From an uncultured Planctomycetaceae bacterium (GTDB taxonomy: Bacteria; Planctomycetota; Phycisphaerae; SM23-33), in contig CAZTVF010000002.1 in assembly GCA_964616985.1 (NCBI GenBank), forward strand, positions 25,114 through 89,113: 64,000 nucleotides of DNA, written 5' to 3'. The notes under the pieces are model-generated. The model worked only from the letters and a program-made list of their open reading frames with translations. It did no database searches and was not told the origin of the DNA. Made by a program: the position numbers and the translations under genes. Positions within the stretch are counted from its first letter, which is position 1, and each line of letters begins with the position of its first letter. Shown in pieces: positions 4,290 to 63,043 of the stretch.

Positions 4290-4320
4290 TACTACACCGG
4301 CGGGGTCACACCATGCACGA

Positions 4321-49115: not shown

Positions 49116-49124
49116 GTGCGGCTC

Positions 49125-49751
49125 CTAGAAGACACCTGGGATGAAACGGTATCGGACCTTCGTCATGTATTCTCGGTATTCGGGAAAGCGGCAGAGGAAC
49201 CGTTCTTCGAGCACCGCCCGGTAGACATAGCAGGCGGTGGCGAAGGCCAGCATCGCCGCATTCCACAGGTACGGCAGGAACAGCAGCATGCCCACCTTCC
49301 AGAGGATGTCCGTCAGGTACATCGGGTGGCGCACGATCGAGTACATCCAGTCGGTCGTGATCTTCCGGGCTGCGATCAAGATGCCGAAGCTCCTGCCGAG
49401 GTTCAGCAGCGCCCCCGTGCCCAGCACCACGGCCAGGCCGATCACCGCCTGCGAGCACGTCCGCAGGATCGGGTCCTCGGTGGGTCTGCCGCCAAAGGCC
49501 AGGCCCGAATAGAACGCCGCCAGCGCCACGGCTTGGTGAAAGAGATTCGTGTCGACGGCGACGTGGGGGCGACGCACGAGGAAGATCACCAGCCAGATCA
49601 CGTTGTGGATGAGAAACGCGATCTGGACGAAGTTCAGCAGTTCGCCATCTCGCCAGCGGCACCACGTGTACCATGCGATCCACGCGCCGATGGACAGGAA
49701 TGCGCCCAGGTTAATCAGGAGGTGCTTGTGCCTGTTGATGAAGTCGTTCAT
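49125..49751 (-). CDS. ICMT/PEMT-family integral membrane methyltransferase
   Basis: Multi-TM protein with 'TDWMYSIVRHPMYL' and 'VLEERFL...FPEYREYMTKVRYRFIPGVF' signatures. ATG 49751 forms an ATGA overlap with the upstream stop. Confidence 0.75.
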   Translation of the reverse strand: MNDFINRHKHLLINLGAFLSIGAWIAWYTWCRWRDGELLNFVQIAFLIHNVIWLVIFLVRRPHVAVDTNLFHQAVALAAFYSGLAFGGRPTEDPILRTCSQAVIGLAVVLGTGALLNLGRSFGILIAARKITTDWMYSIVRHPMYLTDILWKVGMLLFLPYLWNAAMLAFATACYVYRAVLEERFLCRFPEYREYMTKVRYRFIPGVF

Positions 49752-51121
49752 CGCCTTCCCCCCATCACGTTGTGGCGGCAGGCGGGCGCGAGCCTGCCGT
49801 CGGCCTGCGGGTAGGCGTTGCAGCACCGGCGGAGGCGGGCGAGATCAAACGTATCGGCGTCCTGGAATGCGTGGATGAAGACCGACTTGATCCTTCGTTC
49901 GGCCGTGGCGAAGGTCTTGCGGGCGTCGAAGCACGCACAGTTCATCTCGGCCAGGACATTGCGAAGGGTCGCCAACACGGCCTGTCCGTCGGGGGCGGCT
50001 CCCACGGGGCCGCTCCACAGATCGTACACCATGTCCTTGAGGCGGTCGTGCTCCTGTTCATCCAGGCCAAACACCGTGCGGTTACTGAGTGTATCCATCA
50101 GCCCATCGGCCTGCACGAGGCGGTTGACCGCCGCCCGGCCGCCGCCATCGAGCATCAGGAAATATGCCAGCGAGAAGCACAGCGGATGGCTGCACGGCAG
50201 CGGCGCAAAGTCTTCCGCCGCCACCTTGCCCGTCGCGGCCAGAAGGCGGATCACGTCGGGAATCGTCAGGCGGCTCGCGCGGCCGGTCATGGCGGCGCCC
50301 CGGCCGGCGAAGGCAAGCGGCTGGATCATCAAGCTCACCACGTGCGGCTGTGAGAAGAAGTAATCCAACGTGGGCGAGAGTTCTTGCTCGTTCACGCCGC
50401 CCGCAAGCGTCATCGTGAGCGAGGTGGCAACGCCAGCCGAGGCGAGCAGATCGAGTACCCGCCGCTTGTCGTCCAGCATCGGCCGGCCTCGCAGCGTTTG
50501 GCAGGCGGCGTCATCGAACCCGTCGAACTGAAGCGAGATCACGACGTTTCGTTCCGCCAGCGCCGGCAGCAATTCGCGGTCGCGCAGCAGCGCCAGCCCG
50601 TTGGTCGAGATGCTCGTGCGGACAATCTCCGGCCGCTTGGCCGCCTCGTCCACCAGTCTCAGCAGGTGCGGGTGCATCAGCGGTTCCCCGCCGGACAGTG
50701 CGAGGATGTCCACCTGTCGTTCGGCCCGCAGCAGGCCGTCGAGCACACGGCGGAAAACCTCGACAGGCATATCCCAATCGCCGCCGGCCTGCGCGATGCA
50801 GATGGGGCAGGCCAGGTCGCATCGCCCCGTCACTTCGACGATGGGCATGCATAGATGCTGCTCGTGGCGCGTGCACATGCCGCAGCCATCGGGGCAGGGA
50901 GCCTTGGCATCGCCGGCGAATTTCAGGGGGGTCCACGCGGGCTTCACGAACCGCTGCGCCCGCAGGTACTGCTGCACGTCGGCATAGACGTACGTTCGCT
51001 GGCGGCCATGATCGGGGCAGAACTTGTCGAAGTAAACCTTGCCGTCGTCGGTCACCACCTTGGCCGGGACGATCTGCCGACAGACGCCGCACACGGATTG
51101 TGTCATGCCCAGCGTGTTCAT
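49748..51121 (-). CDS. radical-SAM enzyme with N-terminal Cys4/zinc-ribbon and extra Cys cluster (MJ0619/COG1964-like architecture)
   Basis: 'CGVCRQIV...KFCPDHG', 'CPDGCGMCTRHEQHLC', then the radical-SAM 'GRCDLACPIC' and 'LSGGEPL'. ATG 51121 forms an ATGA overlap with the upstream stop. Confidence 0.8.
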   Translation of the reverse strand: MNTLGMTQSVCGVCRQIVPAKVVTDDGKVYFDKFCPDHGRQRTYVYADVQQYLRAQRFVKPAWTPLKFAGDAKAPCPDGCGMCTRHEQHLCMPIVEVTGRCDLACPICIAQAGGDWDMPVEVFRRVLDGLLRAERQVDILALSGGEPLMHPHLLRLVDEAAKRPEIVRTSISTNGLALLRDRELLPALAERNVVISLQFDGFDDAACQTLRGRPMLDDKRRVLDLLASAGVATSLTMTLAGGVNEQELSPTLDYFFSQPHVVSLMIQPLAFAGRGAAMTGRASRLTIPDVIRLLAATGKVAAEDFAPLPCSHPLCFSLAYFLMLDGGGRAAVNRLVQADGLMDTLSNRTVFGLDEQEHDRLKDMVYDLWSGPVGAAPDGQAVLATLRNVLAEMNCACFDARKTFATAERRIKSVFIHAFQDADTFDLARLRRCCNAYPQADGRLAPACRHNVMGGRR

Positions 51122-52146
51122 GTTCGCGGCCTCACGGAGGTGAAGAACTCGCGGAACTGCCTCCAGCGAGGCGGCTTGTGCATGCATTCGGCAAACCCGC
51201 GGCAGCTGGTCCAGCACTGGGCGCAGGGCCGTGCGCGCTGCACACCCAGCAGGCGGTCGCGCAGGCCCGTCACGTCGTCGGACAGGATGTTGCCCACGGG
51301 CTCATCCAGCGTTTCGGTGCAACGGGCGACGTTGCCGTGGTTGTCGATGTTCATCAACAGGCGGCCGGTCTGGCAGTCGCCGATCCCGCCGACGGCGATC
51401 GCCCGGTCGAACTGTTCGATGTAGCTCGTGAGGGTGATGAACTCGGGATACTTCCGTTTGAGCCCCAGCAGGTGCTCCGTCACGCGGTCACTGGGCAGGC
51501 GCGGGCTCTTGGTGCCGCGGTTCCAGGAGTACAGGTTGACCATGTAGGTCACGCCGATCTGGCGGGCCAGTTGAATCAGCGGTTCGACATCCTGGAGGTT
51601 ATCGTCCATCAGCACGCTGATCATGTGAACCCGGTTTCGCTTGTCGGGCCGGTTCTTGTGCAGAAGTTCCAGTGCGCGCACGGCGCGGTCCCACGCGCCC
51701 ACGCGGCCGCGCTGGGCATCGTGGCGGGCGGGGTCGACATAGTCGACGGACACCGAGATCTCCTGCAGCCCGGCCTTGAGCAGGTCCTTGGCCTTGGCCT
51801 CGTCGACGAACCAGCCGTTGGTGATGAGGATGGGGAAGTGGTTCGCCTGGTTGAGGATTGTGATGATCTCGGGCAGGTCGTCACGGATCAGCGGCTCGCC
51901 CCCGGCCAGCGAAATGATCAACGTGCCCAGGCGGTTGAGCCTCGTGCCGATGACGCGGAAATCGTCCAGCGAGAGCTCGTCGGTGTTCTGGTAGTCCGGC
52001 TTCCAGAAGTCGCAGATCTGGCACTGGAAGTTGCAGCGATACGTGACCTGGAGATTGCAGTGCAGCATCCGCTTGAGCAGGAGGTTTCGCGCCAGCCGCA
52101 GGCAGCGATACTGGTAATGCACTTCCTTTCGCACAGCCGTCAGCAT
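51118..52146 (-). CDS. radical-SAM enzyme with SPASM-like C-terminal Cys motifs
   Basis: 'LQVTYRCNFQCQIC', 'LAGGEPL'. C-terminal 'GDCQTGRLLMNIDNHGNVARC' fits C-x12-G-x4-C, followed by 'CAQCWTSCRGFAEC'. ATG 52146 overlaps the upstream stop by 7 nt. Confidence 0.8.
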   Translation of the reverse strand: MLTAVRKEVHYQYRCLRLARNLLLKRMLHCNLQVTYRCNFQCQICDFWKPDYQNTDELSLDDFRVIGTRLNRLGTLIISLAGGEPLIRDDLPEIITILNQANHFPILITNGWFVDEAKAKDLLKAGLQEISVSVDYVDPARHDAQRGRVGAWDRAVRALELLHKNRPDKRNRVHMISVLMDDNLQDVEPLIQLARQIGVTYMVNLYSWNRGTKSPRLPSDRVTEHLLGLKRKYPEFITLTSYIEQFDRAIAVGGIGDCQTGRLLMNIDNHGNVARCTETLDEPVGNILSDDVTGLRDRLLGVQRARPCAQCWTSCRGFAECMHKPPRWRQFREFFTSVRPRT

Positions 52147-53153
52147 GATCGTCTCCAGTCTTTCAGTTCGCCCAGGGCCGCCAGCGGATGACGCTGAAGG
52201 AGCGACAGGGCCATGTGACAGAAGATGCGGCACTGGCCGCGGCAACCCGGCATCATCGTCCGCTCGATTCGTTCGGGCGTGAGCAGATCTCGATACCGCC
52301 CGGCCGGCGGGATAGCCAACTGCTCCTGCGGCCGCTCCAGGCAGGGCAGGTTGACCGTGCCGTCGGGGCGGATAGTGGGCATCAACAGCGGATGGCACGC
52401 GTAGTCGCTCCCGTCGCGGATGCCCCGCAGGTACCGGCCGATGCCGAGCACCGCGGCCCCGGCCACCTTGGCGGCAATCGCCTCATCGACGAGCGATCGA
52501 AACTCCTCGTTGTCCCGCAGGGCCGGATGCACTGCCGTGCCGACGATTTGCGGCGACAGTTGAAACCCCAGCTTGTGTCGCACCGCCAGGCGAAGCACGT
52601 CGCGGACATCCGACAGGTTGTCCGGCATGGCCACGGCCGACAGCGCGATCTGCGCGGAATAGTGCGATCGGTTTTCGATGACCCAGGCAAGCGAGGCGAG
52701 AGTATCCGCCGCGGCGGCAGCATCGCCGCCGATGAGGGCGGCCAGGCGGTCGGGGTCCAGAGAATCGATGCTGAGCACAAGCACGTCCGAAAGCCGCATG
52801 AGCTGGGGCCTTTGGGGTAGGTGCGGGCCCTTGGTGTTCAGCACCGTGCGGAAGCCGACGCCACGGGCACAGGTCAGCAGATCCTCCAGGTCCGCGCGGA
52901 GCAGCGGCTCGCCGCCGGTGAAGTCCAGCGTATCGCCATCGCGCCGCAATATGCGGATGAGGGCCTTCGCCTCCGCCGTAGTCAATTCCGCGACAGCATC
53001 TTCCTTGAACGGCCTGCCGCGGCCGTCGCTGCAGTGCCGGCAAGCCAGAGGGCAGCGGTGCGTGACATAGTAGGAGAACAGCAGCGGCCGCGTTGGCGGA
53101 CGGCCCATCGCGATCGCCGAGAGGTTCCGGACGTAGTTCACCACAAAGCCCAT
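52140..53153 (-). CDS. radical-SAM enzyme with SPASM/twitch-like C-terminal Cys motifs
   Basis: 'YYVTHRCPLACRHC', 'FTGGEPL'. C-terminal 'YACHPLLMPTIRPDGTVNLPC' and 'PGCRGQCRIFC'. ATG 53153 follows AGGAGG and shares 1 nt with the upstream TGA (TGATG). Confidence 0.8.
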   Translation of the reverse strand: MGFVVNYVRNLSAIAMGRPPTRPLLFSYYVTHRCPLACRHCSDGRGRPFKEDAVAELTTAEAKALIRILRRDGDTLDFTGGEPLLRADLEDLLTCARGVGFRTVLNTKGPHLPQRPQLMRLSDVLVLSIDSLDPDRLAALIGGDAAAAADTLASLAWVIENRSHYSAQIALSAVAMPDNLSDVRDVLRLAVRHKLGFQLSPQIVGTAVHPALRDNEEFRSLVDEAIAAKVAGAAVLGIGRYLRGIRDGSDYACHPLLMPTIRPDGTVNLPCLERPQEQLAIPPAGRYRDLLTPERIERTMMPGCRGQCRIFCHMALSLLQRHPLAALGELKDWRRSC

Positions 53154-53722
53154 CAGGCCTTGCCCTCCTTGGGCCCAAGGGGCCTGGCCGGCACGCCGCC
53201 CACGGTCGCATGGTCGGCCACGTCGCTCACGACGACGCTGCCCAGGCCGGTGGTGACGCCCTCGCCGACCGTCACGCCGCATCGCACGATCGACCACGCC
53301 CCAACCACGGAGCCCTTGCCGATCTGCACGCGACCCAGGCGAAAAAACCCGGCGGTGTATTCGTGCGTCAGCAGCCGGCAGCCGATGCCCAGGAAGCAGC
53401 CGTCCTGCAGTTCGATGAGTTGCGGGTAGAACGCGTCGATGAACACGCCCGGGGCGATGTAGACGCCCTTGCCGATCCGCACGCCCATCCGCCGGTACAG
53501 CCAAACCTTCGCGTGCGACCACGGCAGGCGGCTGACCAAGTACATGATCGCGAATCGCAGGTTGAACGTCAGGTCGATCCAGACCGTGGGGAACAGGATC
53601 TTGCACACGCCGTAGTTCTCGTGGCGATGCAGAACGAACGGGCGGGCCCTGTCGCCGGCCCACCAGTCGGCATAGGCCTGCCGCTCTGTTCTGAGTTGCT
53701 GCTGGTCCTGTTCACTCAACAT
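53153..53722 (-). CDS. hexapeptide-repeat (LbH) acyl/acetyltransferase with a hydrophobic N-terminal segment
   Basis: 'GVRIGKGVYIAPGVFID...IELQDGCFLGIGCRLL...VQIGKGSVVGAWSIVRCGVTVGEGVTTGLGSVVVSDV...VGGVPARPL'. The start overlaps the upstream stop by 11 nt. Confidence 0.8.
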   Translation of the reverse strand: MLSEQDQQQLRTERQAYADWWAGDRARPFVLHRHENYGVCKILFPTVWIDLTFNLRFAIMYLVSRLPWSHAKVWLYRRMGVRIGKGVYIAPGVFIDAFYPQLIELQDGCFLGIGCRLLTHEYTAGFFRLGRVQIGKGSVVGAWSIVRCGVTVGEGVTTGLGSVVVSDVADHATVGGVPARPLGPKEGKA

Positions 53723-55127
53723 AGAATCGCTCGTCCTGCATGCGGTAGAAGAGGTTGTAGGTGCACGCCGGCACCAGTCGTCCCGGCTGGCAGGGAACCT
53801 GATCGGGGCACATCATGGCGCGGGAACAATCGAAGGTGCCTTCATCCATGTGCGAATGAACGTACACCGTCCGGACGCACGACTCGGCCGCCCGGTGCCG
53901 CTCGAACACGCCCAGCGTGCGGTCCGCGGGGTACAGTTTCTCCAACACGCTGCGCAGAACCTGCAGGTGCTCGGTGCTTCCCTTGGCATACAGGTCGTTG
54001 ATCGCGTCGGTGAAGAATTCCTGCCCGCCCTGCGGCCGCAGCAGGTAGGAATCGCCCAGCAACTCCGTCAGCCGCTCGCGCGGTCCCAGCCTCGCCAGCG
54101 GCAGCATGCCCGACGGCGTCTTGAGGGCATAGCACAGCAGATAGCACAGCGGATGCGCCGAGGGGCGGGTGAGGAAATCATCGAATGCCAGTTCGCCATT
54201 CGTCTGCTCACAGACGATGCGGGCGGCCTCGTCCACGGGAATGTGGTCGGCGCGGGGAAAGCGCCCTCCGCCCTGGCCTGTGTAGGTCATGGTCTGCACG
54301 GTCAGGCTCCCGATGGCATCGTTCTGTCGCATCAGCGACCACAGGGGGGCGATGGCGGATTCGTTCACGCCGCGCACCATCACGTTCAGCAGCGTCATCC
54401 GCACGCCGGCCGCCGTGAGGTTGTCGATCGCCTTGAGCTTCGTCGCCACCAGGTCCCGGCCATGAAGCTGAACGCTGACTGCGGGGTCGAATGTATTGAA
54501 CGACAGGATCACGCTGACCCCGCGCTGGGCGAGCTGGCGGCAGAGTTCCTTGTCCTGGGCCAGTCGCAGGCCGTTGGAGTTCATCGTGATGCGGCCGATC
54601 TCGTCGCGGCGGCAGCAGTCGAGGAGATCCAGGATCTGCGGGTGCAGCGTGGGCTCGCCGCCGGTGATGTTGATCAGGTCCACGCTGCCGGAGGACTCGA
54701 TGATCCAGTCCACCGTTCGCCGCATCTCGTCGATGGGCATGTGGTGCAGCCGGTCGGCGCGGTTGTAGGTGAAGCAGATCGGGCATCGCAACTCGCATGC
54801 GTTCGTCACCGAAAGCACGGGCAGTTGGCAGGGCGATGCATGAAACGCGCACGGGCCGCAATCATGCGGACATCCGCGGGAGGGCTGGCGGCTGTGCGGC
54901 AGCGGCGAACGGTCCGGCATCGCCTTGAGCACCGAAGACATGTACCAGTTCGGGTCCGCGGCGATGAGCGCTGGCGCGTTCTCGCACGTGGGGCAAAGTG
55001 CCTGCTGCCACACCTTCCACTGGCGGAAAAACACCCGCGCGGGCACGACCTGGCGGCACGTGCGGCACATGCCCCGCACGGTCGTGAAGTACGTATAGTC
55101 ACGTTCGGTCAGTCGCGCCATGGTCAC
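53712..55127 (-). CDS. radical-SAM enzyme with N-terminal Cys4/zinc-ribbon and extra Cys cluster (paralog type of 49748..51121)
   Basis: 'CRTCRQVV...LCPTCE', 'CPHDCGPCAFHASPC', radical-SAM 'TNACELRCPIC', 'ITGGEPT'. GTG 55127 forms a GTGA overlap with the upstream stop (alternative ATG at 55121). Confidence 0.8.
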   Translation of the reverse strand: MTMARLTERDYTYFTTVRGMCRTCRQVVPARVFFRQWKVWQQALCPTCENAPALIAADPNWYMSSVLKAMPDRSPLPHSRQPSRGCPHDCGPCAFHASPCQLPVLSVTNACELRCPICFTYNRADRLHHMPIDEMRRTVDWIIESSGSVDLINITGGEPTLHPQILDLLDCCRRDEIGRITMNSNGLRLAQDKELCRQLAQRGVSVILSFNTFDPAVSVQLHGRDLVATKLKAIDNLTAAGVRMTLLNVMVRGVNESAIAPLWSLMRQNDAIGSLTVQTMTYTGQGGGRFPRADHIPVDEAARIVCEQTNGELAFDDFLTRPSAHPLCYLLCYALKTPSGMLPLARLGPRERLTELLGDSYLLRPQGGQEFFTDAINDLYAKGSTEHLQVLRSVLEKLYPADRTLGVFERHRAAESCVRTVYVHSHMDEGTFDCSRAMMCPDQVPCQPGRLVPACTYNLFYRMQDERFYVE

Positions 55128-55585
55128 TCCCGCCCCTGTGCCAGCGGCCGGTGGATCTGCGAGAACAAGACCCTCAGGTCATCAGGATCGTGGAAGTCCG
55201 CCAGGGCCGCCGGAATGGCGAGGCACCCCTTGCCCGTGGCGATCGTTCGCCCCGAGGAGGAGGCTACCCCGTGGAACACGACGCCGTCGCTGCGATAACT
55301 CGCGACCTGGACATCCATATGAAGGCTTTGCCCGGGCCCCAGCGGCTCGTGAAAACGAACCTCTTCGAATCGGACCAGCAGGCCCATCTGCGTGAAGTCC
55401 GACGACAGGACGATCAGCCAATTGCCCAGTTGGAACAGGGCCTCCATCAACAGGCTTTCGGGCAGCGAAGCCTCGCGGCCCATCCGGCTGCGCAGGCAGT
55501 ATTCCTCGAGCGACAGGGCCTTGATGCCCGCGATGCTCCGCTGCATCTGCCAATCGAGGATCCTGTCCACCATGCGGAACTTCAT
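55124..55585 (-). CDS. hot-dog-fold protein (FabA/FabZ-like but lacking the canonical HFP His motif)
   Basis: 'MKFRMVDRILDW...IAGIKALSLEE...LPESLLMEALFQLGNWL...RFEEVRFHEPLGPGQSL'. It aligns in layout with the FabZ at 59733..60185, but 'DHFPxxPVMPG' is replaced by 'RMGREASLPES'. The ORF-track extension to 56236 is an out-of-frame overlap with the reductase gene. Confidence 0.65.
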   Translation of the reverse strand: MKFRMVDRILDWQMQRSIAGIKALSLEEYCLRSRMGREASLPESLLMEALFQLGNWLIVLSSDFTQMGLLVRFEEVRFHEPLGPGQSLHMDVQVASYRSDGVVFHGVASSSGRTIATGKGCLAIPAALADFHDPDDLRVLFSQIHRPLAQGRE

Positions 55586-56319
55586 CAGATGCCCCCGTCG
55601 ACGAAGATCGACTGCGCGTTGATGTAGCTGCTGCGGCCGCTGGCCAGGAACGCCACCAGTTCGGCGACCTCGGCCGGCTCGCCCGCGCGAGACAGGCAGC
55701 AGAAGTCGTTGTACTTTTCCCGCTGGCGGGGCGGCACGTTCTCGCTGACTCCGCCGCTGAGCATGCCCGGCACGACGGCGTTGACGCGGATGTTGTACCG
55801 CCCCAGCTCGCGGGCAAGCGAAAGCGTGAAGCCCATCACGGCGCTCTTGGCGGTGGCGTAATGAACCGGAACCTCCAGCACGCGCATGCCCGCCAGCGAC
55901 CCCAGATTGACGATGTTGCCGCTCTTGCGGCGGATCATGCCGCGCGCGAATGCCTTGGTGGCCAGGAACATGCCTTTGACGTTCACGTCCATCACCAGGT
56001 CCCAGTCCTTCTCCTCGATCATGGCGAAGGGCATGACCTGCGTGGCGCCGGCGTTGTTGACCAGCACGTCGACGCGGCCCATGTCCTGCTCGATCGTCTG
56101 GGCCAGGGCCTGGCAGGCCGTGGCGTCCAGCACGTCCAGCGGATAGGCGCGAACCGTCCCGCCGGCGTCGAGGCACTGCTGCTGGAGCGCCTGGGCCCGG
56201 TCGGCATGCGAATGGTACGAGAATGCGACGCGGCAATGCTCGCGGACCAGCACGCGCACGATGGCTGAGCCCACGGCCCCGCTGCCGCCGGTCACAAAGG
56301 CAACCTTCCCCTCAAGCAT
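55585..56319 (-). CDS. 3-oxoacyl-ACP reductase-like SDR (FabG-like)
   Basis: 'GKVAFVTGGSGAVGSAI' (TGxxxGxG), 'NNAG', 'YATAKSAV' (YxxxK), 'PGMLSGG'. ATG 56319 overlaps the ACP stop by 8 nt. Confidence 0.85.
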   Translation of the reverse strand: MLEGKVAFVTGGSGAVGSAIVRVLVREHCRVAFSYHSHADRAQALQQQCLDAGGTVRAYPLDVLDATACQALAQTIEQDMGRVDVLVNNAGATQVMPFAMIEEKDWDLVMDVNVKGMFLATKAFARGMIRRKSGNIVNLGSLAGMRVLEVPVHYATAKSAVMGFTLSLARELGRYNIRVNAVVPGMLSGGVSENVPPRQREKYNDFCCLSRAGEPAEVAELVAFLASGRSSYINAQSIFVDGGI

Positions 56320-56725
56320 CGACGGCCTCCTGCGGCTTGGCCGCAAGCTTGCGCTGGATGAGATGCACGAACACCGCCACGTTGAGGACCGACGGCACCT
56401 CGATCTTCTTCATTCCCGGCCGCAGTGTCTCCGGCGGCACCTCGGGCAGGGCCTTGCGCAGCTCCGCCACGGCCAGCGAGGTCAGGCAGCCGTCGCGCTC
56501 ATACTCGCCGCTGGGCACCTGCCCGCTCGCCTGGCGTTCAAACTCGTCGGCCTCGATCGTGATGCCGAAGCTCTCCTCGATCAGGAAGCTCAGGTCGAGC
56601 AGGTCGATGGACTCGGCCCCCAGGTCCGCCATCAGGTTGCTCGTCATCGCCACCTGGTGGGCCTTGGCACCCGTGACCTCGCGGATCAGCGGCAAGAGCT
56701 TGTCAAATACCTCGGTCTCAGTCAT
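56312..56725 (-). CDS. acyl carrier protein with a ~60-aa C-terminal extension
   Basis: 'VFDKLLPLIREVTGAKAHQVAMTSNLMADLGAESIDLLDLSFLIEESFGITIEADEFE' has an ACP four-helix layout with the phosphopantetheine Ser in 'LGAESID'. A further ~60 residues follow (...EVPPETLRPGMKKIEVPSVLNVAVFVHLIQRKLAAK...). Confidence 0.75.
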   Translation of the reverse strand: MTETEVFDKLLPLIREVTGAKAHQVAMTSNLMADLGAESIDLLDLSFLIEESFGITIEADEFERQASGQVPSGEYERDGCLTSLAVAELRKALPEVPPETLRPGMKKIEVPSVLNVAVFVHLIQRKLAAKPQEAVDA

Positions 56726-56729
56726 GGAT

Positions 56730-57338
56730 TCACCTGTATTCCACAATGTGCTCAACGGACTTCCTTCGGGGCGGCGGTGTTGTCTCGGTCGCGTAGCCCA
56801 CGGCTACAAGGCACGTGGGCTCAAACCCGGCCGGCAGGTCCAGCGACTGCCAGACTTCACCTGCCAGCAGCGGGGCGGTCATGACGCACGCGCCGAGCCC
56901 AAGCACGTGGGCTGCCAGCAGCATGTTCTGCACGGCCATCGCGGTGCTGATCGCCTCGCTGCTGGCGCGTCGCGGGTCGGCGCCGACCAGGGACTTGCCG
57001 ATCGCGGGGCTCTTCTTGCTCATGGCCAGGACCACCACGGGGGCGGCCTCGAACACCGTCGCGAAATGCAGAAGCTCCTGCCCTTGAGCAGCCAGCAGGC
57101 CCTGTGTTCCCGCGAGGCTCTCGCCCAGGCCGTGGCGCACCTGCTGGGCCAGCTGGCGAATCTGGGCCGCATCGCGAAACACCAGGAACTTCCACCCCTG
57201 GCGGTTGTGGTTCGACGGCGCCCACCGGGCCGCCTCGATCAGCTTGTCGAGCATGGCCTGTTCGGGCCGGCGATCCGTGAACGCCCGCACCGAACGTCGC
57301 GAGCGAAGCACCTCGAAGAATGCCTCTTCCTGCGTCAC
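56730..57338 (-). CDS. nitroreductase-family (FMN) oxidoreductase
   Basis: 'LRSRRSVRAFTDRRPEQAMLDKLIEAARWAPSNHNRQGWKFLVF'. GTG 57338 is preceded by GGGAGG and forms a GTGA overlap with the KAS stop. The ORF-track extension to 57464 overlaps the KAS gene. Confidence 0.75.
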   Translation of the reverse strand: MTQEEAFFEVLRSRRSVRAFTDRRPEQAMLDKLIEAARWAPSNHNRQGWKFLVFRDAAQIRQLAQQVRHGLGESLAGTQGLLAAQGQELLHFATVFEAAPVVVLAMSKKSPAIGKSLVGADPRRASSEAISTAMAVQNMLLAAHVLGLGACVMTAPLLAGEVWQSLDLPAGFEPTCLVAVGYATETTPPPRRKSVEHIVEYR

Positions 57339-58591
57339 GAGCACCTCCCGAAGATCAGCGTGGCGTTCTGCCCGCCGAAACCGAATGAGTTCGACAACAC
57401 CGTGCGGCCCTCGAACGGCCGGGCGGTGAGCGGAACATAATCGAGGTCGCACTGGGGATCGCACGCGTGGAGGTTGATCGTGGGCGGCACGCGCCGGTGT
57501 CGAAGGGTCAGTGCTGCCGCAGCCGCCTCGACCGCGCCGCTGGCGGCAATCATGTGGCCGGTCATCGACTTCACCGCGTGCACCGGCACGCGGTACGCTC
57601 GCGGGCCCAGCACTTCCTTGATGGCCGCCGTCTCGACGGCGTCGTTCTTCACCGTGCCCGTCCCGTGGGCGCTGACGCAGTCGATCTGCTCCGGCGACAG
57701 GTTGGCATCAGCCAAGGCCATGGTCATGCTCTGCACCGCGCCCCTGCCGCTGGGCTCGGGGTCCGATACGCGGAAGCCGTCCATCGAGCAGCCGTAGCCG
57801 AGTACCTCCGCATACGGCGCGACGCCGCGGGCCAGCGCGTCATCGAGACGCTCGAGGACCATGAACGCGGCACCCTCGCCCAGGACCGTGCCTTTACGCG
57901 TGGCATCGAAAGGTCGGCACGCGAGATGCGGCGTGTCATTCTCGGCCGAGAGCACGCGGAGCAGGCCAAACCCGCCCAGGCCCAGCGGGTTGAGCATGCT
58001 ATCGATGGCACCGGCCAACGCAACTGTCGCCTCGCCGCGGCGAAGCAGGCGCAGCGCCTCGCCCACCGCCTGGGCGCCGGCGGCGCACGCGGCACAATTC
58101 GTGAACCGCCCGCCGAGGAAGCCGTAGCTTCCGCCAAGGATTTCCGCCGTTGTGTCCAGCGGCGTCTGCAGGAGCTTGCCCGCCAGCAAGGCCGGAAGCT
58201 GCGACGCAATCGCCTGCCCGATGTCGTCGGCCTGCGCAAATGCCGTCAAGTCCTCCAGGCACAGCATCTCCAGCCCGACGCCCACGTGCAGCGATGCGTC
58301 CTGCAAGGTGGCCTCGGCAAGGCCGCTGTCGCCGATAGCGTCACGGGCGGCCTCCAGGCCGAGCAGCACCTTGCGGTCGCGGCAGGGCGCCGCCTGCCCG
58401 AACGCCTGGATCACAGACGCCGCATCGAAGTCGTTCACCTGCCCACCGATCCGCACGGGGAATTCCGACGCGTCGAAGTGAGTGATGGGCCCCAGGCCGC
58501 AGCGCCCGCCAGAGAGTCCCCGCCAGAAGCCGTCGCGCCCGTTGCCCACGGGGCTCAGCACGCCAATGCCGGTGACGACGATCCGGATCAT
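57335..58591 (-). CDS. beta-ketoacyl-ACP synthase II-like (active KS)
   Basis: 'MIRIVVTGIGVLSPVG', active-site 'NCAACAAGAQA', 'VSAHGTGTVKND', 'VKSMTGHMIAASG', 'SNSFGFGGQNATLIF'. ATG 58591 forms an ATGA overlap. The ORF-track extension to 59584 is an Arg/Pro/Gly shadow over the CLF gene. Confidence 0.9.
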   Translation of the reverse strand: MIRIVVTGIGVLSPVGNGRDGFWRGLSGGRCGLGPITHFDASEFPVRIGGQVNDFDAASVIQAFGQAAPCRDRKVLLGLEAARDAIGDSGLAEATLQDASLHVGVGLEMLCLEDLTAFAQADDIGQAIASQLPALLAGKLLQTPLDTTAEILGGSYGFLGGRFTNCAACAAGAQAVGEALRLLRRGEATVALAGAIDSMLNPLGLGGFGLLRVLSAENDTPHLACRPFDATRKGTVLGEGAAFMVLERLDDALARGVAPYAEVLGYGCSMDGFRVSDPEPSGRGAVQSMTMALADANLSPEQIDCVSAHGTGTVKNDAVETAAIKEVLGPRAYRVPVHAVKSMTGHMIAASGAVEAAAAALTLRHRRVPPTINLHACDPQCDLDYVPLTARPFEGRTVLSNSFGFGGQNATLIFGRCS

Positions 58592-59718
58592 ACGCCCTCC
58601 AGCAGCAAAGCGCCTTGCTGGCTGCCGTGGCCAAAGCAGTGGGCCAGCACGTGTTTGCCCGCCCCTGCACCATGGGCCATCGTGGCGGCCAGCGCCACCT
58701 GGACGGCGGCGGCCGCGGCAAACAGGTTGCCCAGGTATCGCTTGGGATGCACTCGCCGGCCGACGAGCAGCGATGCCCGCGCGATCGCTTCTGTTTCCGC
58801 CTGGGCGATGAAACGGTCGCCATCGCCCGCCGGGACGAGATCCACTGCGCCGCCTGCCCCGATGTCGCCGATCACGTTGCGGAACGTCGCCGCTAGGTCT
58901 GCGGGCGTGGGGGCGGTTCGCATCACATGCCGGGCCACCCTGGCATATATTCGGGCGCCGCGCGCCCGTGCTTGCCGTTCCTCCTCCAGCACGAGGAAGG
59001 CGGCGCCCTCGCCGGGAATGGAGCCCTCGCCGTGCTGTGCCCACGAGCGGAACGCCCCGATCTGCTGCAGGCTGACGAAGGCGAATTCGTGCGTCCGCAC
59101 ATCGCTCCCGCCCACCAGCGCGCACGCAACGCGGCCCTCCTGGATTTCCCGCACCCCGGCGGCGATCGCCTGCACGCCTTGCCCTTCCCACGGTGTATAG
59201 ATGCCGTTGGGGCCGCGAATGTTCGCGAAGATCGAGACGAAGCAGATCGGCATGTTGGCCAGGATCTTGAACGATAGCACCGGCCGGACGCGCTTGAGCG
59301 CCACGCGGCCGAATTGGGCCAGGTCCAGCCCGCCTTGGGCGTCGGCTGAGTGCTTGACCAGCGAACTGACCTCCTCGGCCGCCATACCGGTCAGGCCGGT
59401 GGCGCCGAAAAGTGCGATGGCCTGGGACGGATACGTCTGGCCCGGCTGGAGGTCGGCGTCGGCTAACGCCAGGCGCGCCGCCGCCACGGCCAGTTGCGCG
59501 TCGCGACTCATGAGCCGCAGGGATTTGCCGTCTTCGACATATTGCTCGGGGTGAAACTCTGCGATCGGGGCGACGGACTTGCACAGCAGCGACGTCGTAT
59601 CGAACGCCGGCCGCCGCGAGGCCGACTCGCCCCGCGCGATCCGCTCCAGCACCGCCGCCGGCGTGGCGCCCAGCGGCGTCACCAGCCCCAGTCCCGTTAT
59701 GACCACCTTTTCGTACAT
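58588..59718 (-). CDS. ketosynthase-like protein lacking the catalytic triad (chain-length-factor / KS-beta-like)
   Basis: 'MYEKVVITGLGLVTPLG' gives a KS fold throughout. The Cys position reads 'IYTPWEGQGVQA' (C to E). No 'HGTGT' is present (the region reads 'LVPAGDGDRF'). 'KxxxGH' is replaced by 'KRYLGNLFAAAAA'. Confidence 0.8.
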   Translation of the reverse strand: MYEKVVITGLGLVTPLGATPAAVLERIARGESASRRPAFDTTSLLCKSVAPIAEFHPEQYVEDGKSLRLMSRDAQLAVAAARLALADADLQPGQTYPSQAIALFGATGLTGMAAEEVSSLVKHSADAQGGLDLAQFGRVALKRVRPVLSFKILANMPICFVSIFANIRGPNGIYTPWEGQGVQAIAAGVREIQEGRVACALVGGSDVRTHEFAFVSLQQIGAFRSWAQHGEGSIPGEGAAFLVLEEERQARARGARIYARVARHVMRTAPTPADLAATFRNVIGDIGAGGAVDLVPAGDGDRFIAQAETEAIARASLLVGRRVHPKRYLGNLFAAAAAVQVALAATMAHGAGAGKHVLAHCFGHGSQQGALLLEGV

Positions 59719-59732
59719 GCCGCCCTTCTCGC

Positions 59733-60185
59733 TTACGGCTGCATCCAGAGCTTCATCATCGTCTTTCGCTTCTGGGCCAACTGCGGATCGTCCACGTACA
59801 TGAACGCGAAGGCCATGCCGGAACTGACCACCGGTTCCCCGTCCCGCAGGGCCTGCACGGCCACCTTGCCGCCGTTTTCGTTCAGGGCCGTCACCTCGGT
59901 CCTGTACGTGAGCGTGTCGCCCGGCCGGACGAACTCGCGAAACTTCGTCCGCTCCAGCAGCGTCAGCACCGCCTTGGCATCCCTGGCGTATTTGTCCAGC
60001 AGGCTCGCCTCCAGCAGCAGGCCCGACACCTGCGCCATCCCCTCGATCATCAGCACGCCCGGCATGACGGGCCGACGCGGGAAGTGGTCGTCGAAGAAAT
60101 CCTCGCTCAAGGCGACGTTCTTGATCGCCTCTGCCGAGCGGCCCACCTCCCACCGCGTGATTCGGTCAATCAGAAAGAATCGCAT
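59733..60185 (-). CDS. 3-hydroxyacyl-ACP dehydratase, FabZ-type
   Basis: 'MRFFLIDRI...EDFFDDHFPRRPVMPGVLMIEGMAQVSG' is the canonical FabZ motif. GGAGGAGG lies 4 nt upstream of ATG 60185. Confidence 0.85.
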   Translation of the reverse strand: MRFFLIDRITRWEVGRSAEAIKNVALSEDFFDDHFPRRPVMPGVLMIEGMAQVSGLLLEASLLDKYARDAKAVLTLLERTKFREFVRPGDTLTYRTEVTALNENGGKVAVQALRDGEPVVSSGMAFAFMYVDDPQLAQKRKTMMKLWMQP

Positions 60186-60835
60186 TTGCCTCCTCCATGG
60201 CCTTGTTGCTGGCCGCTGGCGGCGAGGAATTGCCGCACGATTTCGTCCATCTCCCCCAGGTTGGTGGTGATCGCATATCCCTTGGCCCACAAGGGGGGAG
60301 CAATCTGGGCGAGACGCCTTCTGAGGGCATGTTCCGTGGTGGCGCGCACCCGTCGGGCGGCGAGCTCCGGCGAGTGGTTCGGCCAGGCCTCCACCACCAG
60401 GACCAGGTGGTCGGGCTGGATTCTCTTCTCGATCAGCTTCCAGCCGTGCTCGGCGGCCAAGTTCCCCAAGGCTTTCTCCAGATCCTTTCGGGCCTCGCGC
60501 TGGAGCACAGGCCGCAGGCCTTGCGTCGCCAGGACCAGGCCATACTGAACACGATGCAGGACGCCCTCGTCCGTCTTTGCGAATTCGTGGAGTTTGCGTT
60601 TGATGCGGCTGATAAGAGAGGGGCGGCCCAGGACGGTGATGGATCGCGGCTGATCCGGCAGCTTGGTGAGGTATCCCTTTCTTTCCAGGGCGGCCACGTG
60701 CCCTCGGACCGCGCTGACGTTGGTCAGCCCCACCGCCTCGCCGATCTCCCGCAGGCTGGGGGCATACCCGCGATGTTGCCCGAAGTCTGACACAAAGCTC
60801 AAGATGGCTTGCTGCCTCGGTGTCAACGGCCTCAT
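60170..60835 (-). CDS. transcription factor: LexA-type winged-helix DNA-binding domain fused to an IS200/Y1-transposase-like domain
   Basis: N-terminus 'MRPLTPRQQAILSFVSDFGQHRGYAPSLREIGEAVGLTNVSAVRGHVAALERKGYLTKL' matches the LexA DBD. The C-terminus 'YGLVLATQGLRPVL...HGWKLIEKRIQPDHLVLVVEAWPNHSPELAARRVRATTEHALRR...LWAKGYAITTNLG..EIVRQFL' follows the IS200 TnpA layout, with HUH degenerated to 'DHLVLV'. There is no S24 peptidase domain. The stop overlaps the FabZ start by 16 nt. Confidence 0.7.
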   Translation of the reverse strand: MRPLTPRQQAILSFVSDFGQHRGYAPSLREIGEAVGLTNVSAVRGHVAALERKGYLTKLPDQPRSITVLGRPSLISRIKRKLHEFAKTDEGVLHRVQYGLVLATQGLRPVLQREARKDLEKALGNLAAEHGWKLIEKRIQPDHLVLVVEAWPNHSPELAARRVRATTEHALRRRLAQIAPPLWAKGYAITTNLGEMDEIVRQFLAASGQQQGHGGGKCDSF

Positions 60836-60864
60836 ATGTCCACCTGATTAGTGCTGGTGCTAAT

Positions 60865-60892
60865 ACTATAGGTGCGCATACTAATGCGTCAA
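60865..60892 (-). promoter_or_regulatory. sigma70-like promoter of the lipid operon
   Basis: The minus strand reads TTGACG (60892-60887), a 16-nt spacer, then TATAGT (60870-60865). AGGTGGA lies 4-5 nt before ATG 60835. The element sits in the only AT-rich stretch of this region. Confidence 0.5.
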
Positions 60893-61090
60893 TATCGATG
60901 TATAAAATAAAAGAATGCCGCTCTGCCAGACGGGTCACCCGTGCGAATCCAGCCGGTTCTGCCCCCGATCAGATTGCCCCTGTACGGGTTAACCTGAAGG
61001 GCGTACATAGCGGCGAGCTATATGATAATCAGTACACCAGCAATTTACGGTCGTACAACCATGCAGGAGCATGCGGGAACAGAAGAGATG

Positions 61091-61117
61091 GTGACAGGAG
61101 TGCAGGCCTGCTATACT
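61091..61117 (+). promoter_or_regulatory. possible divergent promoter for the small ORF / efflux genes
   Basis: GTGACA (61091-61096), a 15-nt spacer, then TATACT (61112-61117). The spacer is short, so this is weak. Confidence 0.3.
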
Positions 61118-61125
61118 AATGCACT

Positions 61126-61527
61126 GTGATGGACATGAAGCGAGCATCTGAGATATCCCGAGCGGTAGCCGGCATCGCCATGATCGTGCTGATGACCGTG
61201 GCATCGATGCATGGGCGGTGCCAGACCGACGACGAAACGGCCGTTAAGGAGTCGCTGGGGCTAGGCCTCGTGCCGGCTCCGTGCACGCCGAGCTCGGTCT
61301 CCGGCAGCCACTCGCATTGCTCCTGTTCCCCCTGTGGCGATCCCCCCCTCAAGGCCTCGACCGTTTCATGGCAAGCCAAGAAGTCGCACCGCGAAAGCCA
61401 GCAAGCCACTCCTGCCCCCTTGGCGCGCGTGGCCCGACTATCGCAGCCGAGCAATGACAGCCATCTTCGCCGCCTCGATCTTCCCCCGATTAACTCAGCC
61501 CTTCATAGCACGGTCCTCGTAATCTGA
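61126..61527 (+). CDS. small hypothetical membrane/secreted protein with a Cys/His-rich patch
   Basis: ORF of 133 aa. Hydrophobic 'VAGIAMIVLMTVASM', then 'SGSHSHCSCSPCGD'. The start is uncertain (61126, 61129 or 61135). No family recognised. Confidence 0.3.
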   Translation: MMDMKRASEISRAVAGIAMIVLMTVASMHGRCQTDDETAVKESLGLGLVPAPCTPSSVSGSHSHCSCSPCGDPPLKASTVSWQAKKSHRESQQATPAPLARVARLSQPSNDSHLRRLDLPPINSALHSTVLVI

Positions 61528-61636
61528 CCGCCCCGGTTTCTTTCGCCTAAGATTCTGTCTGGCACGCAAGTGCTTGCACTTTGCACGCACTTGCTGTTGT
61601 CCCCCGTTTACCCCAGATCTGGACAAGGAGACTCGC

Positions 61637-63043
61637 ATGACAGGCAAGCCCACAGGCGGGCCGCTGATGCTCGCAGTCCTGGCGACTATGGCCGGCTGCA
61701 CCGCAGACATAGTGGATAAGGGCTGGCAGCCGATGAGGCCGCTGGGCAAGGACCTGGCCACCATGCGCCCACCGGTCGACTCCAAAGCGGATGCTCAGCC
61801 GGAGGTGGTCTCCGAGCCAACCGGCGCGCTGAACTTACGGCAAGCGCTGGCCTTGGCGATGCTCCACAGCCCCGACCTGGCCGGCGCATCATGGGACGTG
61901 CGGATGGCGGAGGCCCGGGCGATACAAGCCAGCCTGCCGCCCAATCCTGAGATTGGCCTTGATCTGGAATCGGTCGCCAGCCCTCGCGTCGTCGAAACCG
62001 TACTGTCGCTGGGGCAGGTTGTCTTTCTCAGCGACAAGCTGGCACGGCAGAAGCAGGTCGCCCTGCTCGACCGCGACATGAGCGGCTGGGACTGGGAAGC
62101 CCGCCGCGTCCGCGTCTACTCGGAAACCACCAAGGCATTCGTGGCACTGGTGGCCGCACAGGAGCGGCTGGCTTTGACCGAGGACGTCGTGGGCATCTCG
62201 CAGAAGTTCCTGGGCACCGCCGGCGAGCGGGTCCGCAGCGGCAAAACATCTCCCCTGGAAGAGATGAAATCCAAGGTGGAATTGAGCACACTGCGCGCGG
62301 ATATGGAGCAGGCGCGGCAGGCCGTGCTGGCGGCCAGGCAGCGGCTGGCGGCAACATGGGGAGGCACGAGCCCCACGTTCACCATGGCGGAAGGACGGCT
62401 TGAGGTGAAGGGCGCGATTCCCACCGTGGATCAAGTGTTCTGTCTGATGGAGCAGAGCCCCGAGGTTGCTCGCTGGACGACGGAGATGCAGCGTCGCCGG
62501 GCGGTCGCCCGACTGGAGGTGCGAAAGGCGATCCCTGACCTGACCATCGGCGGCGGCTTGAAGCGAGAGAAAGCGGACGGCGAGGCGGCAGTCAAGGGGC
62601 TCACGGTTGGCGCCTCGATCCCGATCCCGATCTTTGACCGCAACCAAGGCGGTATCAAGGAATCCCGCTATAGCCTGGCCAAGGGGCACGAGGAGCAGCG
62701 GGCAACAAGGGTCCGTGTCTTGACGGAGATCGCGGACGCATATCAATCGATGGCTTCGGCCCACGCTCGCTCGGCCATCCTGGGCAACGAGGTTGTTCCC
62801 GAGGCACAGAAGGCGTTTGACGCGGCGTCGGCGGGATATAACGAAGGCAAGTACCCATACCTGGATGTCTTGGACGCGCAGCGTACCGTTTTCGGCGCGC
62901 GGGCTCAGCACCTCGAGGCCCTGGCCGAATACCTGAGGGCCGTCGCTGACATCGAGGGGCTGGTCGGGCAGAGCATCGAGAGCATTGTGAACACCAAGGT
63001 AACCACACAGCACGCGACGACTCAGAAGTCGCAGGAGAAGTAG
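61637..63043 (+). CDS. TolC/CzcC-family outer-membrane efflux lipoprotein
   Basis: ATG 61637 follows AAGGAG (61625-61630). Lipobox 'LAVLATMAGC'. Two coiled-coil repeat halves have typical 'L.LRQALALA..HSPDL', 'IPIFDRNQG', 'Y..GK..YLDVLDAQR' elements. Confidence 0.8.
   Translation: MTGKPTGGPLMLAVLATMAGCTADIVDKGWQPMRPLGKDLATMRPPVDSKADAQPEVVSEPTGALNLRQALALAMLHSPDLAGASWDVRMAEARAIQASLPPNPEIGLDLESVASPRVVETVLSLGQVVFLSDKLARQKQVALLDRDMSGWDWEARRVRVYSETTKAFVALVAAQERLALTEDVVGISQKFLGTAGERVRSGKTSPLEEMKSKVELSTLRADMEQARQAVLAARQRLAATWGGTSPTFTMAEGRLEVKGAIPTVDQVFCLMEQSPEVARWTTEMQRRRAVARLEVRKAIPDLTIGGGLKREKADGEAAVKGLTVGASIPIPIFDRNQGGIKESRYSLAKGHEEQRATRVRVLTEIADAYQSMASAHARSAILGNEVVPEAQKAFDAASAGYNEGKYPYLDVLDAQRTVFGARAQHLEALAEYLRAVADIEGLVGQSIESIVNTKVTTQHATTQKSQEK

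Follow-up and report, generated by a model that had tools for sequence, protein, structure and literature searches.

A LexA-type DNA-binding head joined to a dead IS200/IS605 TnpA-like domain, and predicted tandem operators over the promoter of its lipid operon in an uncultured planctomycete

Introduction

LexA repressors, the TnpA transposases of IS200/IS605 elements and proteins related to these elements that serve their hosts are the described systems closest to a gene found in a 64,000-nucleotide stretch of DNA (called here the window) from an uncultured Planctomycetaceae bacterium of the Phycisphaerae (GenBank assembly GCA_964616985.1, contig CAZTVF010000002.1, positions 25,114 to 89,113). 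This gene, located at positions 60170-60835 of the window, encodes a protein of 221 residues (called here the regulator) in which a LexA-type winged helix is followed, at the place of the LexA autopeptidase, by a TnpA-like domain deprived of its catalytic residues. The gene, its domains, its promoter and the operon that it heads all lie on the minus strand. In our reading, to which we assign a probability of about 0.75, the regulator is an autoregulated repressor that acts locally, on the lipid operon to which its gene belongs.

TnpA is an obligate dimer, and the TnpA proteins of IS200/IS605 elements, as well as the RAYT proteins, bind structured single-stranded hairpins. In its mobile-element context TnpA is present in several copies, with subterminal hairpins and often with tnpB. 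RAYT proteins (TnpA-REP) are Y1-transposase relatives kept in single copy by the host; they are domesticated but catalytic, keep the HUH motif and the tyrosine, and act on flanking repetitive extragenic palindromic (REP) hairpins. On the side of LexA, overlapping tandem boxes occur in colicin promoters, and non-cleavable variants control metabolism, as exemplified by the cyanobacterial LexA that acts on fatty-acid synthesis genes. The nearest conceptual parallel is provided by TldR, a nuclease-dead TnpB that was turned into a repressor and finds its DNA by means of a guide RNA (bioRxiv 10.1101/2023.11.30.569447). As with TldR, a protein of the IS200/IS605 superfamily has lost catalysis here and appears to have become a transcriptional repressor, but the donor is TnpA, the product of the other gene of the element, and DNA would be read by the fused LexA head. 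A fusion of a LexA head to a Y1 domain was not found described in open-access papers and preprints, including a review of mobile-element exaptation, which is absence of evidence only; an earlier note on this DNA, made from the sequence alone, had not recognised the fusion as a described regulator class, and the literature agrees with it to that extent.

Results

Residues 1-64 of the regulator (60644-60835) match the Pfam family LexA_DNA_bind (PF01726) with a score of 72.4 bits against a cut-off of 23.7 (E 2.5e-20). The corresponding domain of the AlphaFold model (mean predicted local distance difference test, pLDDT, of 87.6; 43 relatives used) resembles the LexA head 1lea with a template-modelling score (TM) of 0.89, and sequence and fold searches of the PDB returned the LexA structures 3k2z, 1lea and 3jso for this domain. 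The head aligns with LexA gap-free and residue for residue over positions 1-70, and the alignment of the NCBIfam LexA equivalog TIGR00498, which scored 63 bits for a cut-off of 110.95, is confined to these same residues. By contrast, the S24 peptidase (PF00717) that characterises LexA gave no match in the regulator up to an E-value of 10; the Ser-Lys dyad is missing, and alignment of the linker revealed no Ala-Gly cleavage site. The defining S24 domain having been searched for and found absent, the regulator is not a member of the LexA family. The recognition helix, N39-V-S-A-V-R-G-H46, differs as well, since S39, N41, E44 and E45 of E. coli LexA are replaced by N39, S41, R44 and G45; among the 109 full-length homologues on which all residue counts given here are based, A42, R44, G45 and H46 are invariant (109/109).

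The C-terminal half of the protein is of another origin. Residues 94-212 (60200-60556) form a TnpA-like domain of the Y1 HUH type, delimited by Pfam, by Foldseek and by profile alignments to PDB entries; the Pfam family Y1_Tnp (PF01797) matches residues 94-203 with 45.7 bits against a cut-off of 23 (E 8.3e-12), and the NCBIfam model transpos_IS200 (NF033573) scored 53 bits, narrowly below its cut-off of 55. A Foldseek search with the C-terminal domain of the model identified the IS200-type TnpA 2fyx with a TM of 0.81 and an E-value of about 5e-8; 2fyx, 2f4f and 2xm3 were found at E-values of about 1e-8 to 1e-7, and these three together with 2vjv at a TM of 0.7-0.8, the matches being structures of the TnpA proteins of IS200, ISDra2 and IS608. 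Between the two domains, family alignments delimit a conserved linker (residues 65-93, 60557-60643) in which S76, K79, L82, H83 (109/109), T88, D89 and G91 stand out, H94, which adjoins it, being conserved too; AlphaFold places a helix at residues 74-87 with low confidence. The earlier note had read from the sequence both a LexA winged helix in the first 70 or so residues and an IS200 TnpA-like domain in place of S24. The profile searches and the structure prediction sustain both readings, the two domains scoring well above their gathering thresholds and the folds agreeing with the profiles.

The main functional evidence comes from the promoter of the gene. A σ70-type promoter is found at 60865-60892, composed of a -35 element TTGACG (60892-60887), a 16-nt spacer and a -10 element TATAGT (60870-60865). 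It matches the consensus at 10 of 12 positions and is the sole promoter-like site in 60100-61700; a near-consensus promoter, TTGACA-16/18-TAtAcT, occupies the same place upstream of nearly every member of the family. A pattern search located two predicted operator boxes on this promoter, an arrangement that is our main new finding and was not part of the earlier note. Box 1 (AGTATgcgcacctATAGT, 60865-60882) covers the spacer and the -10 element, and box 2 (AGTATtagcaccaGCACT, 60850-60867) covers the end of the -10 element and the predicted transcription start, the two boxes overlapping by 3 nt and thus being phased by 15 bp. The pattern, A-S-T-R-T-N8-A-Y-A-S-T, describes an 18-bp palindrome of family consensus AGTGTAC-N4-GTACACT. 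With at most one mismatch allowed, it matched 38 times in 2,200 bp of family promoters (21 of 22 loci) and 26 times in 261,768 bp of flanking DNA, an enrichment of about 170-fold that is partly circular, as the pattern was derived from the same promoters as those counted. The pattern itself presupposes neither the 15-bp phasing nor a constant placement with respect to the -10 element nor any likeness to SOS boxes.

Addition of the window and of two further loci (L085 and L087) brought the number of boxes to 45, with the symmetrised consensus tAtAGTGTAcatatgTACACTaTa, and adjacent boxes were found exactly 15 bp apart and sharing 3 nt in 21 pairs out of 21. Several boxes, such as ACTGTATATAAATACAGT in L018 and ACTGTACAAGTGTACAGT in L007, contain CTGT-N8-ACAG, the core of the E. 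coli SOS box. In orthologues of 70-73% protein identity the half-sites are kept but the eight intervening bases are not, a pattern that is the hallmark of protein-binding sites. In L085 and L087 a third box covers the ribosome-binding site; its counterpart in the window is degenerate, with 3 mismatches by reading of the sequence. The resemblance to LexA thus extends from the head to the operators, which are palindromic, have the geometry of a 16-bp core and, through the presence of a box in the regulator's own promoter, imply autoregulation in silico. We infer, with strong comparative support, that the head binds to the palindromes lying over its own promoter. These tandem SOS-box-like palindromes over the -10 element are what leads us to propose an autoregulated repressor.

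Several observations weigh against this proposal. In addition to the circularity mentioned above, each of the two boxes of the window has one mismatch and the third is degenerate; binding and repression rest on sequence comparison in silico; the predicted structure is that of a monomer only, and its interdomain linker is of low confidence, with a pLDDT below 50 at residues 85-92; finally, the targeting of the own operon was judged from 64 kb of the genome.

The promoters being already close to consensus, another mode of action is conceivable in principle, the protein being either an activator or a structural fusion without any regulatory role. We regard this as very unlikely. A near-consensus promoter needs no activator, boxes placed over the spacer, the -10 element and the predicted start correspond to the classic layout of a repressor, and a fusion without a role is at odds with the strong purifying selection that the 109 homologues reveal on both domains.

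It may also be asked whether the operon is one target among many, the regulator being a global one that substitutes for LexA in Planctomycetes or acts as its partner. The invariance of the recognition helix (A42, R44, G45 and H46), a box consensus that is the same whichever operon follows and the presence of one family copy in most genomes of a species-level scan would all fit such a role. However, the only other match with at most one mismatch in the whole window, at 22935, lies inside an open reading frame (ORF) of 7,177 residues and was rejected as an operator and taken as a chance match. In the fetched flanks, which extend over at most 8 kb to either side, a single perfect box was found outside the family promoters; it belongs to L022 and lies about 1.2 kb upstream of the gene. 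Furthermore, the gene is always the first of its operon, as is typical of local regulators, and in at least one metagenome-assembled genome (MAG) paralogues are found at two loci, L002 and L023, each of them heading a separate operon. A global role consequently appears quite unlikely to us, and a local repressor of the own operon remains the preferred reading. The giant gene that contains the match at 22935 spans positions 12702-34235 on the minus strand.

Other sequences reminiscent of the boxes were observed. L022 is the sole family locus devoid of a box near the start codon; about 250 bp of degenerate tandem repeats (GGTTGTGGGATCGTGCGGTTG..., positions 4220-4486 of this locus) are present there between a box-like sequence, AGTATACATTCGAGTACT (4236), and the start of the regulator. 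The box-like sequence GCTGTCATTYAAGATACT recurs inside the gene of the divergent ketosynthase in three loci (L009 at 2224, L012 at 9578 and L003 at 9597); it appears to encode the conserved peptide LSFKIL, so that it probably reflects coding conservation and not a binding site. In the window, a second exact copy of GCATTAGTAT is found at 61113-61122, 235 bp upstream of the copy in box 1, and TTAGTAT occurs 2 times in the 64 kb for 0.34 occurrences expected. To fit the box, the site at 61113-61122 requires a spacer of 9 nt (by reading), and L085 and L087, whose upstream neighbours differ, do not keep it; an auxiliary site and a chance resemblance are both conceivable.

The intergenic region that harbours the promoter (60836-61636) is unusually long, about 800 bp, with a lower GC content (57%), and separates the regulator from a divergently transcribed outer-membrane efflux gene (OEP, 61574/61637-63043). 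No Rfam match was obtained in this region. An ORF of 133 residues (61126-61527) with a signal-peptide-like start is present in it, and is not called as a gene in public assemblies.

To locate the catalytic positions, a profile of the C-terminal half was aligned to solved TnpA proteins, 2a6m and 2f4f among them. The remnant of the HUH motif, D142-H143-L144-V145 (60401-60412), aligns to D-H64-I-H66 of IS608, the regulator sequence 'PDHLVLVV' facing 'PDHIHLFV' and 'DKDHIHIL' of transposases. The first histidine of the motif (H64 of IS608) is hence conserved as H143, whereas the second (H66) is replaced by V145, the catalytic tyrosine (Y127) by F203 (codon 60227-60229, as placed by alignment to 2a6m and 2f4f) and the glutamine metal ligand (Q131) by S207. 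These losses are shared by the family. The second histidine is present in none of the homologues (0/109), which have V, A, I or L instead; the position of the tyrosine is occupied by L in 57, F in 44 and Y in 3 of the 109, that is by L or F in 101/109; and the position of the glutamine shows no conservation. The first histidine is kept in 90/109 and the preceding aspartate in 99/109. In the most divergent members (23-35% identity) the first histidine is often gone too, the second histidine and the tyrosine being missing there as well.

With the second HUH histidine, the catalytic tyrosine and the glutamine ligand lost, comparison of the sequences shows that the C-terminal domain cannot cut DNA in the manner of Y1 transposases. 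The earlier note had already seen that the second histidine was lost. It had, however, placed 'LWAKGYAITT' at the tyrosine helix; this segment aligns with the TnpA β-strand motif 'LWTRSYFVAT', and the true position of the tyrosine is that of F203. The correction strengthens the conclusion that the domain is non-catalytic, the loss being more complete than the note had supposed. What the domain shares with the TnpA proteins of IS608, ISDra2 and Sulfolobus (2f4f) is the fold, the order of the elements, the aspartate with the first histidine and the 'LW..SY..T' strand. It differs from them not only by the lost residues and the absence of mobility but also by its fusion to a head that binds double-stranded DNA and by the gain of the motifs EHGW and WPNHS and of the conserved linker. 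These data identify the C-terminal half as a TnpA domain of IS200/IS605 origin that has been exapted.

The gained residues are among the most conserved of the family. H83, W132 and H154 are identical in 109/109, E129-H130-G-W132 is likewise family-conserved, and conservation counts delimit a family-specific motif, W151-P-N-H154-S155 (60371-60385); in the alignment neither this motif nor W132 has a counterpart in active TnpA proteins. From the strand order of the model and the β-α-β-β-α-β topology of HUH domains, the WPNHS and EHGW motifs and the group formed by H94 and the linker probably cluster at one end of the sheet.

A domain that is dead for catalysis could still bind structured hairpins of single-stranded DNA or RNA, and thereby provide a RecA-independent sensor of single-stranded DNA or a second mode of action on the operators or on the mRNA leader. 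The fold is indeed well preserved, with a TM of 0.7-0.8 to TnpA-DNA complexes, the first HUH histidine and its aspartate are mostly kept, and the near-perfect palindromes of the operators could extrude as hairpins; the LexA-type head and the SOS-like boxes would suit the sensing of single-stranded DNA. Nonetheless, no conserved hairpin was found near the gene besides the operators, the operons concerned are lipid and envelope operons and not DNA-repair ones, and the fact that the most conserved residues, W132 and WPNHS, have no counterpart in active TnpA proteins points to a new function rather than to a retained one. Hairpin binding is thus unlikely in our view, and the repressor reading, in which the head reads the operators, is the one that we retain.

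As regards its place in the operon, the regulator gene is preceded by a Shine-Dalgarno sequence, AGGTGGA (60839-60845), and its TGA (60172-60170) lies beyond the ATG of the next gene (60185-60183), which encodes a FabZ/ApeI-like dehydratase (59733-60185; ORF list, Pfam and assemblies) and has its own ribosome site, GGAGGAGG. The coordinates bear out the 16-nt overlap reported in the earlier note, and this overlap implies translational coupling; no terminator was found on the strand of the two genes. The same 221-residue ORF, identical and with the same neighbours, was recovered from 4 independent assemblies of SRA read sets. As the ORF is intact in these assemblies and 109 full-length homologues share the two-domain layout, the fusion is not an artefact in which a frameshift has merged two genes, an eventuality that the note had named among those that would undo it. 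Upstream neighbours vary among the loci checked, whereas the linkage of the regulator to the downstream operon is kept at 40-73% protein identity; together with the overlap of its stop with FabZ, this conservation of the downstream order assigns the regulator to the operon.

These features also bear on the possibility of a mobile element, inserted before the operon, whose product would be an IS200-like transposase still active or active until recently, or a RAYT, equipped with a DNA-targeting domain. The names given to family members in databases and the 53 bits obtained with transpos_IS200 for a cut-off of 55 would speak for it. On the other hand, the second HUH histidine, the tyrosine and the glutamine ligand are missing across the family, and the RAYT model NF047646 yielded 11.7 bits for a cut-off of 80. 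The regulator is single-copy in the window, no repeated ends and no REP-like repeats were found around it, its GC content (63.7%) is close to that of the window (64.7%), the linkage persists between distant loci, and its stop overlaps FabZ. Neither the several copies nor the ends of a mobile element are encountered here, and a resemblance to RAYTs is limited to a Y1-transposase relative kept single-copy by its host. The active-transposase reading is effectively refuted. The view of the earlier note that the gene belongs to the operon and is not an inserted element holds, and so does its description of a domesticated, probably non-catalytic module, for which the lost residues, the single copy, the host-like GC content and the downstream synteny all argue; only the position that it had given to the tyrosine has to be abandoned.

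The family is compact. Over 110 clusters that combine the two domains in this way, in chains of about 208-230 residues, came out of a search of 5.8 billion proteins; among 1.84 billion representatives at 50% identity, only 30 clusters were retrieved at an E-value of 1e-30 or better. The sources that are named are Planctomycetota or Phycisphaerae, nearly all uncultured, and the product names conflict, 'transposase', 'RayT' or 'REP element-mobilizing transposase RayT', 'repressor LexA' and 'hypothetical' being all in use. In GTDB, with one genome per species, 24 family loci were found, all in MAGs; most are labelled Planctomycetota, Phycisphaerae, Pirellulales or Planctomycetales, and 3 Deltaproteobacteria/Desulfobacteraceae. 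Subfamilies that would track the downstream operon were looked for and nothing firm emerged, the neighbour-joining tree displaying partial clustering by operon context only. The PADLOC defence models did not match the regulator, and PHROGs returned generic repressor and transposase families only. Many unrelated proteins of 140-350 residues (P0139, P0141, P0142, P0144, P0146-P0148 and others) match the LexA head twice; each chain seems, from its sequence, to carry LexA-type winged helices in tandem, which would be a further non-canonical use of this DNA-binding domain.

The rest of the presumed regulated operon (47604-59722) was delineated by Pfam scans and conserved order. After the regulator come the ApeI-like FabZ, a divergent ketosynthase, a ketosynthase, a nitroreductase, a FabA-like protein, four radical-SAM enzymes, a PEMT/ICMT-like methyltransferase and a NifS-rhodanese protein; the two ketosynthases form a pair of the ketosynthase/chain-length-factor (KS/CLF) kind, and one of the radical-SAM enzymes bears an HMPTM zinc ribbon. 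The regulator lies directly upstream of the same FabZ-KS-KS cluster in L001, L003, L005, L009, L012, L022, L085 and L087, and a FabZ match also comes immediately after it in L002. The FabZ matches of L004 and L016 lie about 0.5-0.8 kb downstream, with an intervening ORF for a membrane protein in L004, and L020 and L021 display a rearranged gene order.

The cluster resembles the proposed 'Cluster I' of anammox ladderane synthesis and the hydrocarbon cluster of Desulfotalea psychrophila (PMC2649909; bioRxiv 10.64898/2026.05.19.726425). Neither PMC2649909 nor the bioRxiv document, a 2026 preprint on KS/CLF, mentions a regulator for a ladderane-type cluster. In the window this ladderane-like cluster (47604-60185) belongs to a non-anammox genome of 65% GC. 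That the regulator controls ladderane synthesis in anammox bacteria is not claimed here, no named anammox genus being represented among the 24 family loci; the sole locus labelled 'Brocadiaceae', L004, is GC-rich by eye (Ala/Arg/Gly-rich ORFs in every frame) and has a different gene before FabZ.

Lipid operons are not the only ones headed by the family. In L007, L011, L013, L014, L015 and L023 the regulator is followed by a VIT-VWA protein and a rhomboid protein. These six loci share a conserved trio made of the regulator, a VIT-VWA protein of about 730 residues and a rhomboid-family protease, a unit that may serve to process surface proteins under the control of a regulator of this type. Other operons encode β-helix proteins (L006 and L010), DUF2339 membrane proteins (L008 and L018) or an ORF of 2,006 residues (L019).

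Discussion

Taken together, these data lead us to propose the following mechanism. A dimer would read each 18-bp palindrome through its two LexA-type heads, and two or three dimers would fill the array phased by 15 bp, thus blocking RNA polymerase at a strong promoter. The bound protein would thereby shut off both the regulator and the translationally coupled FabZ/KS/radical-SAM lipid operon. In the place of the S24 autopeptidase, the dead TnpA domain would be the module that holds the two heads together. As TnpA is known as an obligate dimer, dimerisation would take place, by analogy, most plausibly through the TnpA-like domain.

How repression would be relieved distinguishes the regulator from LexA. 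Having neither an S24 domain nor a cleavage site, it cannot be released by RecA-stimulated self-cleavage, and its neighbours form lipid and envelope operons, not DNA-repair ones. With the non-cleavable LexA variants it shares the use of a LexA-type head outside the DNA-damage response, fab genes included, but those variants keep an S24-like C-terminal domain. The inducing signal may enter at the His/Trp-rich site (H83, H94, H130, W132 and W151-P-N-H154-S), although sensing by this site of the TnpA-like domain is speculative. The site and the linker are equally conserved in the regulators that head lipid, VIT-VWA, β-helix and DUF2339 operons; since the same site and an invariant recognition helix precede such different operons, sequence conservation makes a general cellular cue, a metal or a partner a more likely input than a lipid intermediate or another pathway intermediate.

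A bolder view is that the domain is not a mere scaffold, and that it represents the first case in which an IS200/IS605 TnpA domain has come to serve a bacterial transcription factor as effector or sensor, either because structure-specific nucleic-acid binding is kept or because the His/Trp residues form a metal or ligand site. It would then be a RecA-independent switch for SOS-box-type operators that control envelope and 'ladderane-like' lipid operons of Planctomycetes. We hold this to be rather unlikely.

The names 'transposase', 'RayT' and 'LexA repressor' under which members of the family are deposited are all misleading. The family would represent a second route from IS200/IS605 elements to a regulator: by the first, TnpB gave rise to TldR, and by the second, TnpA became a dead domain joined to a LexA head. 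The operator geometry of LexA, with its 16-bp core and overlapping tandem boxes, would have survived the exchange of the dimerisation and cleavage domain for an unrelated fold, and the family can be regarded as a natural experiment on how far DNA recognition by LexA depends on the S24 domain. For the FabZ/KS-CLF/radical-SAM clusters, this work provides a predicted operator and a likely on/off switch, which could help their heterologous expression.

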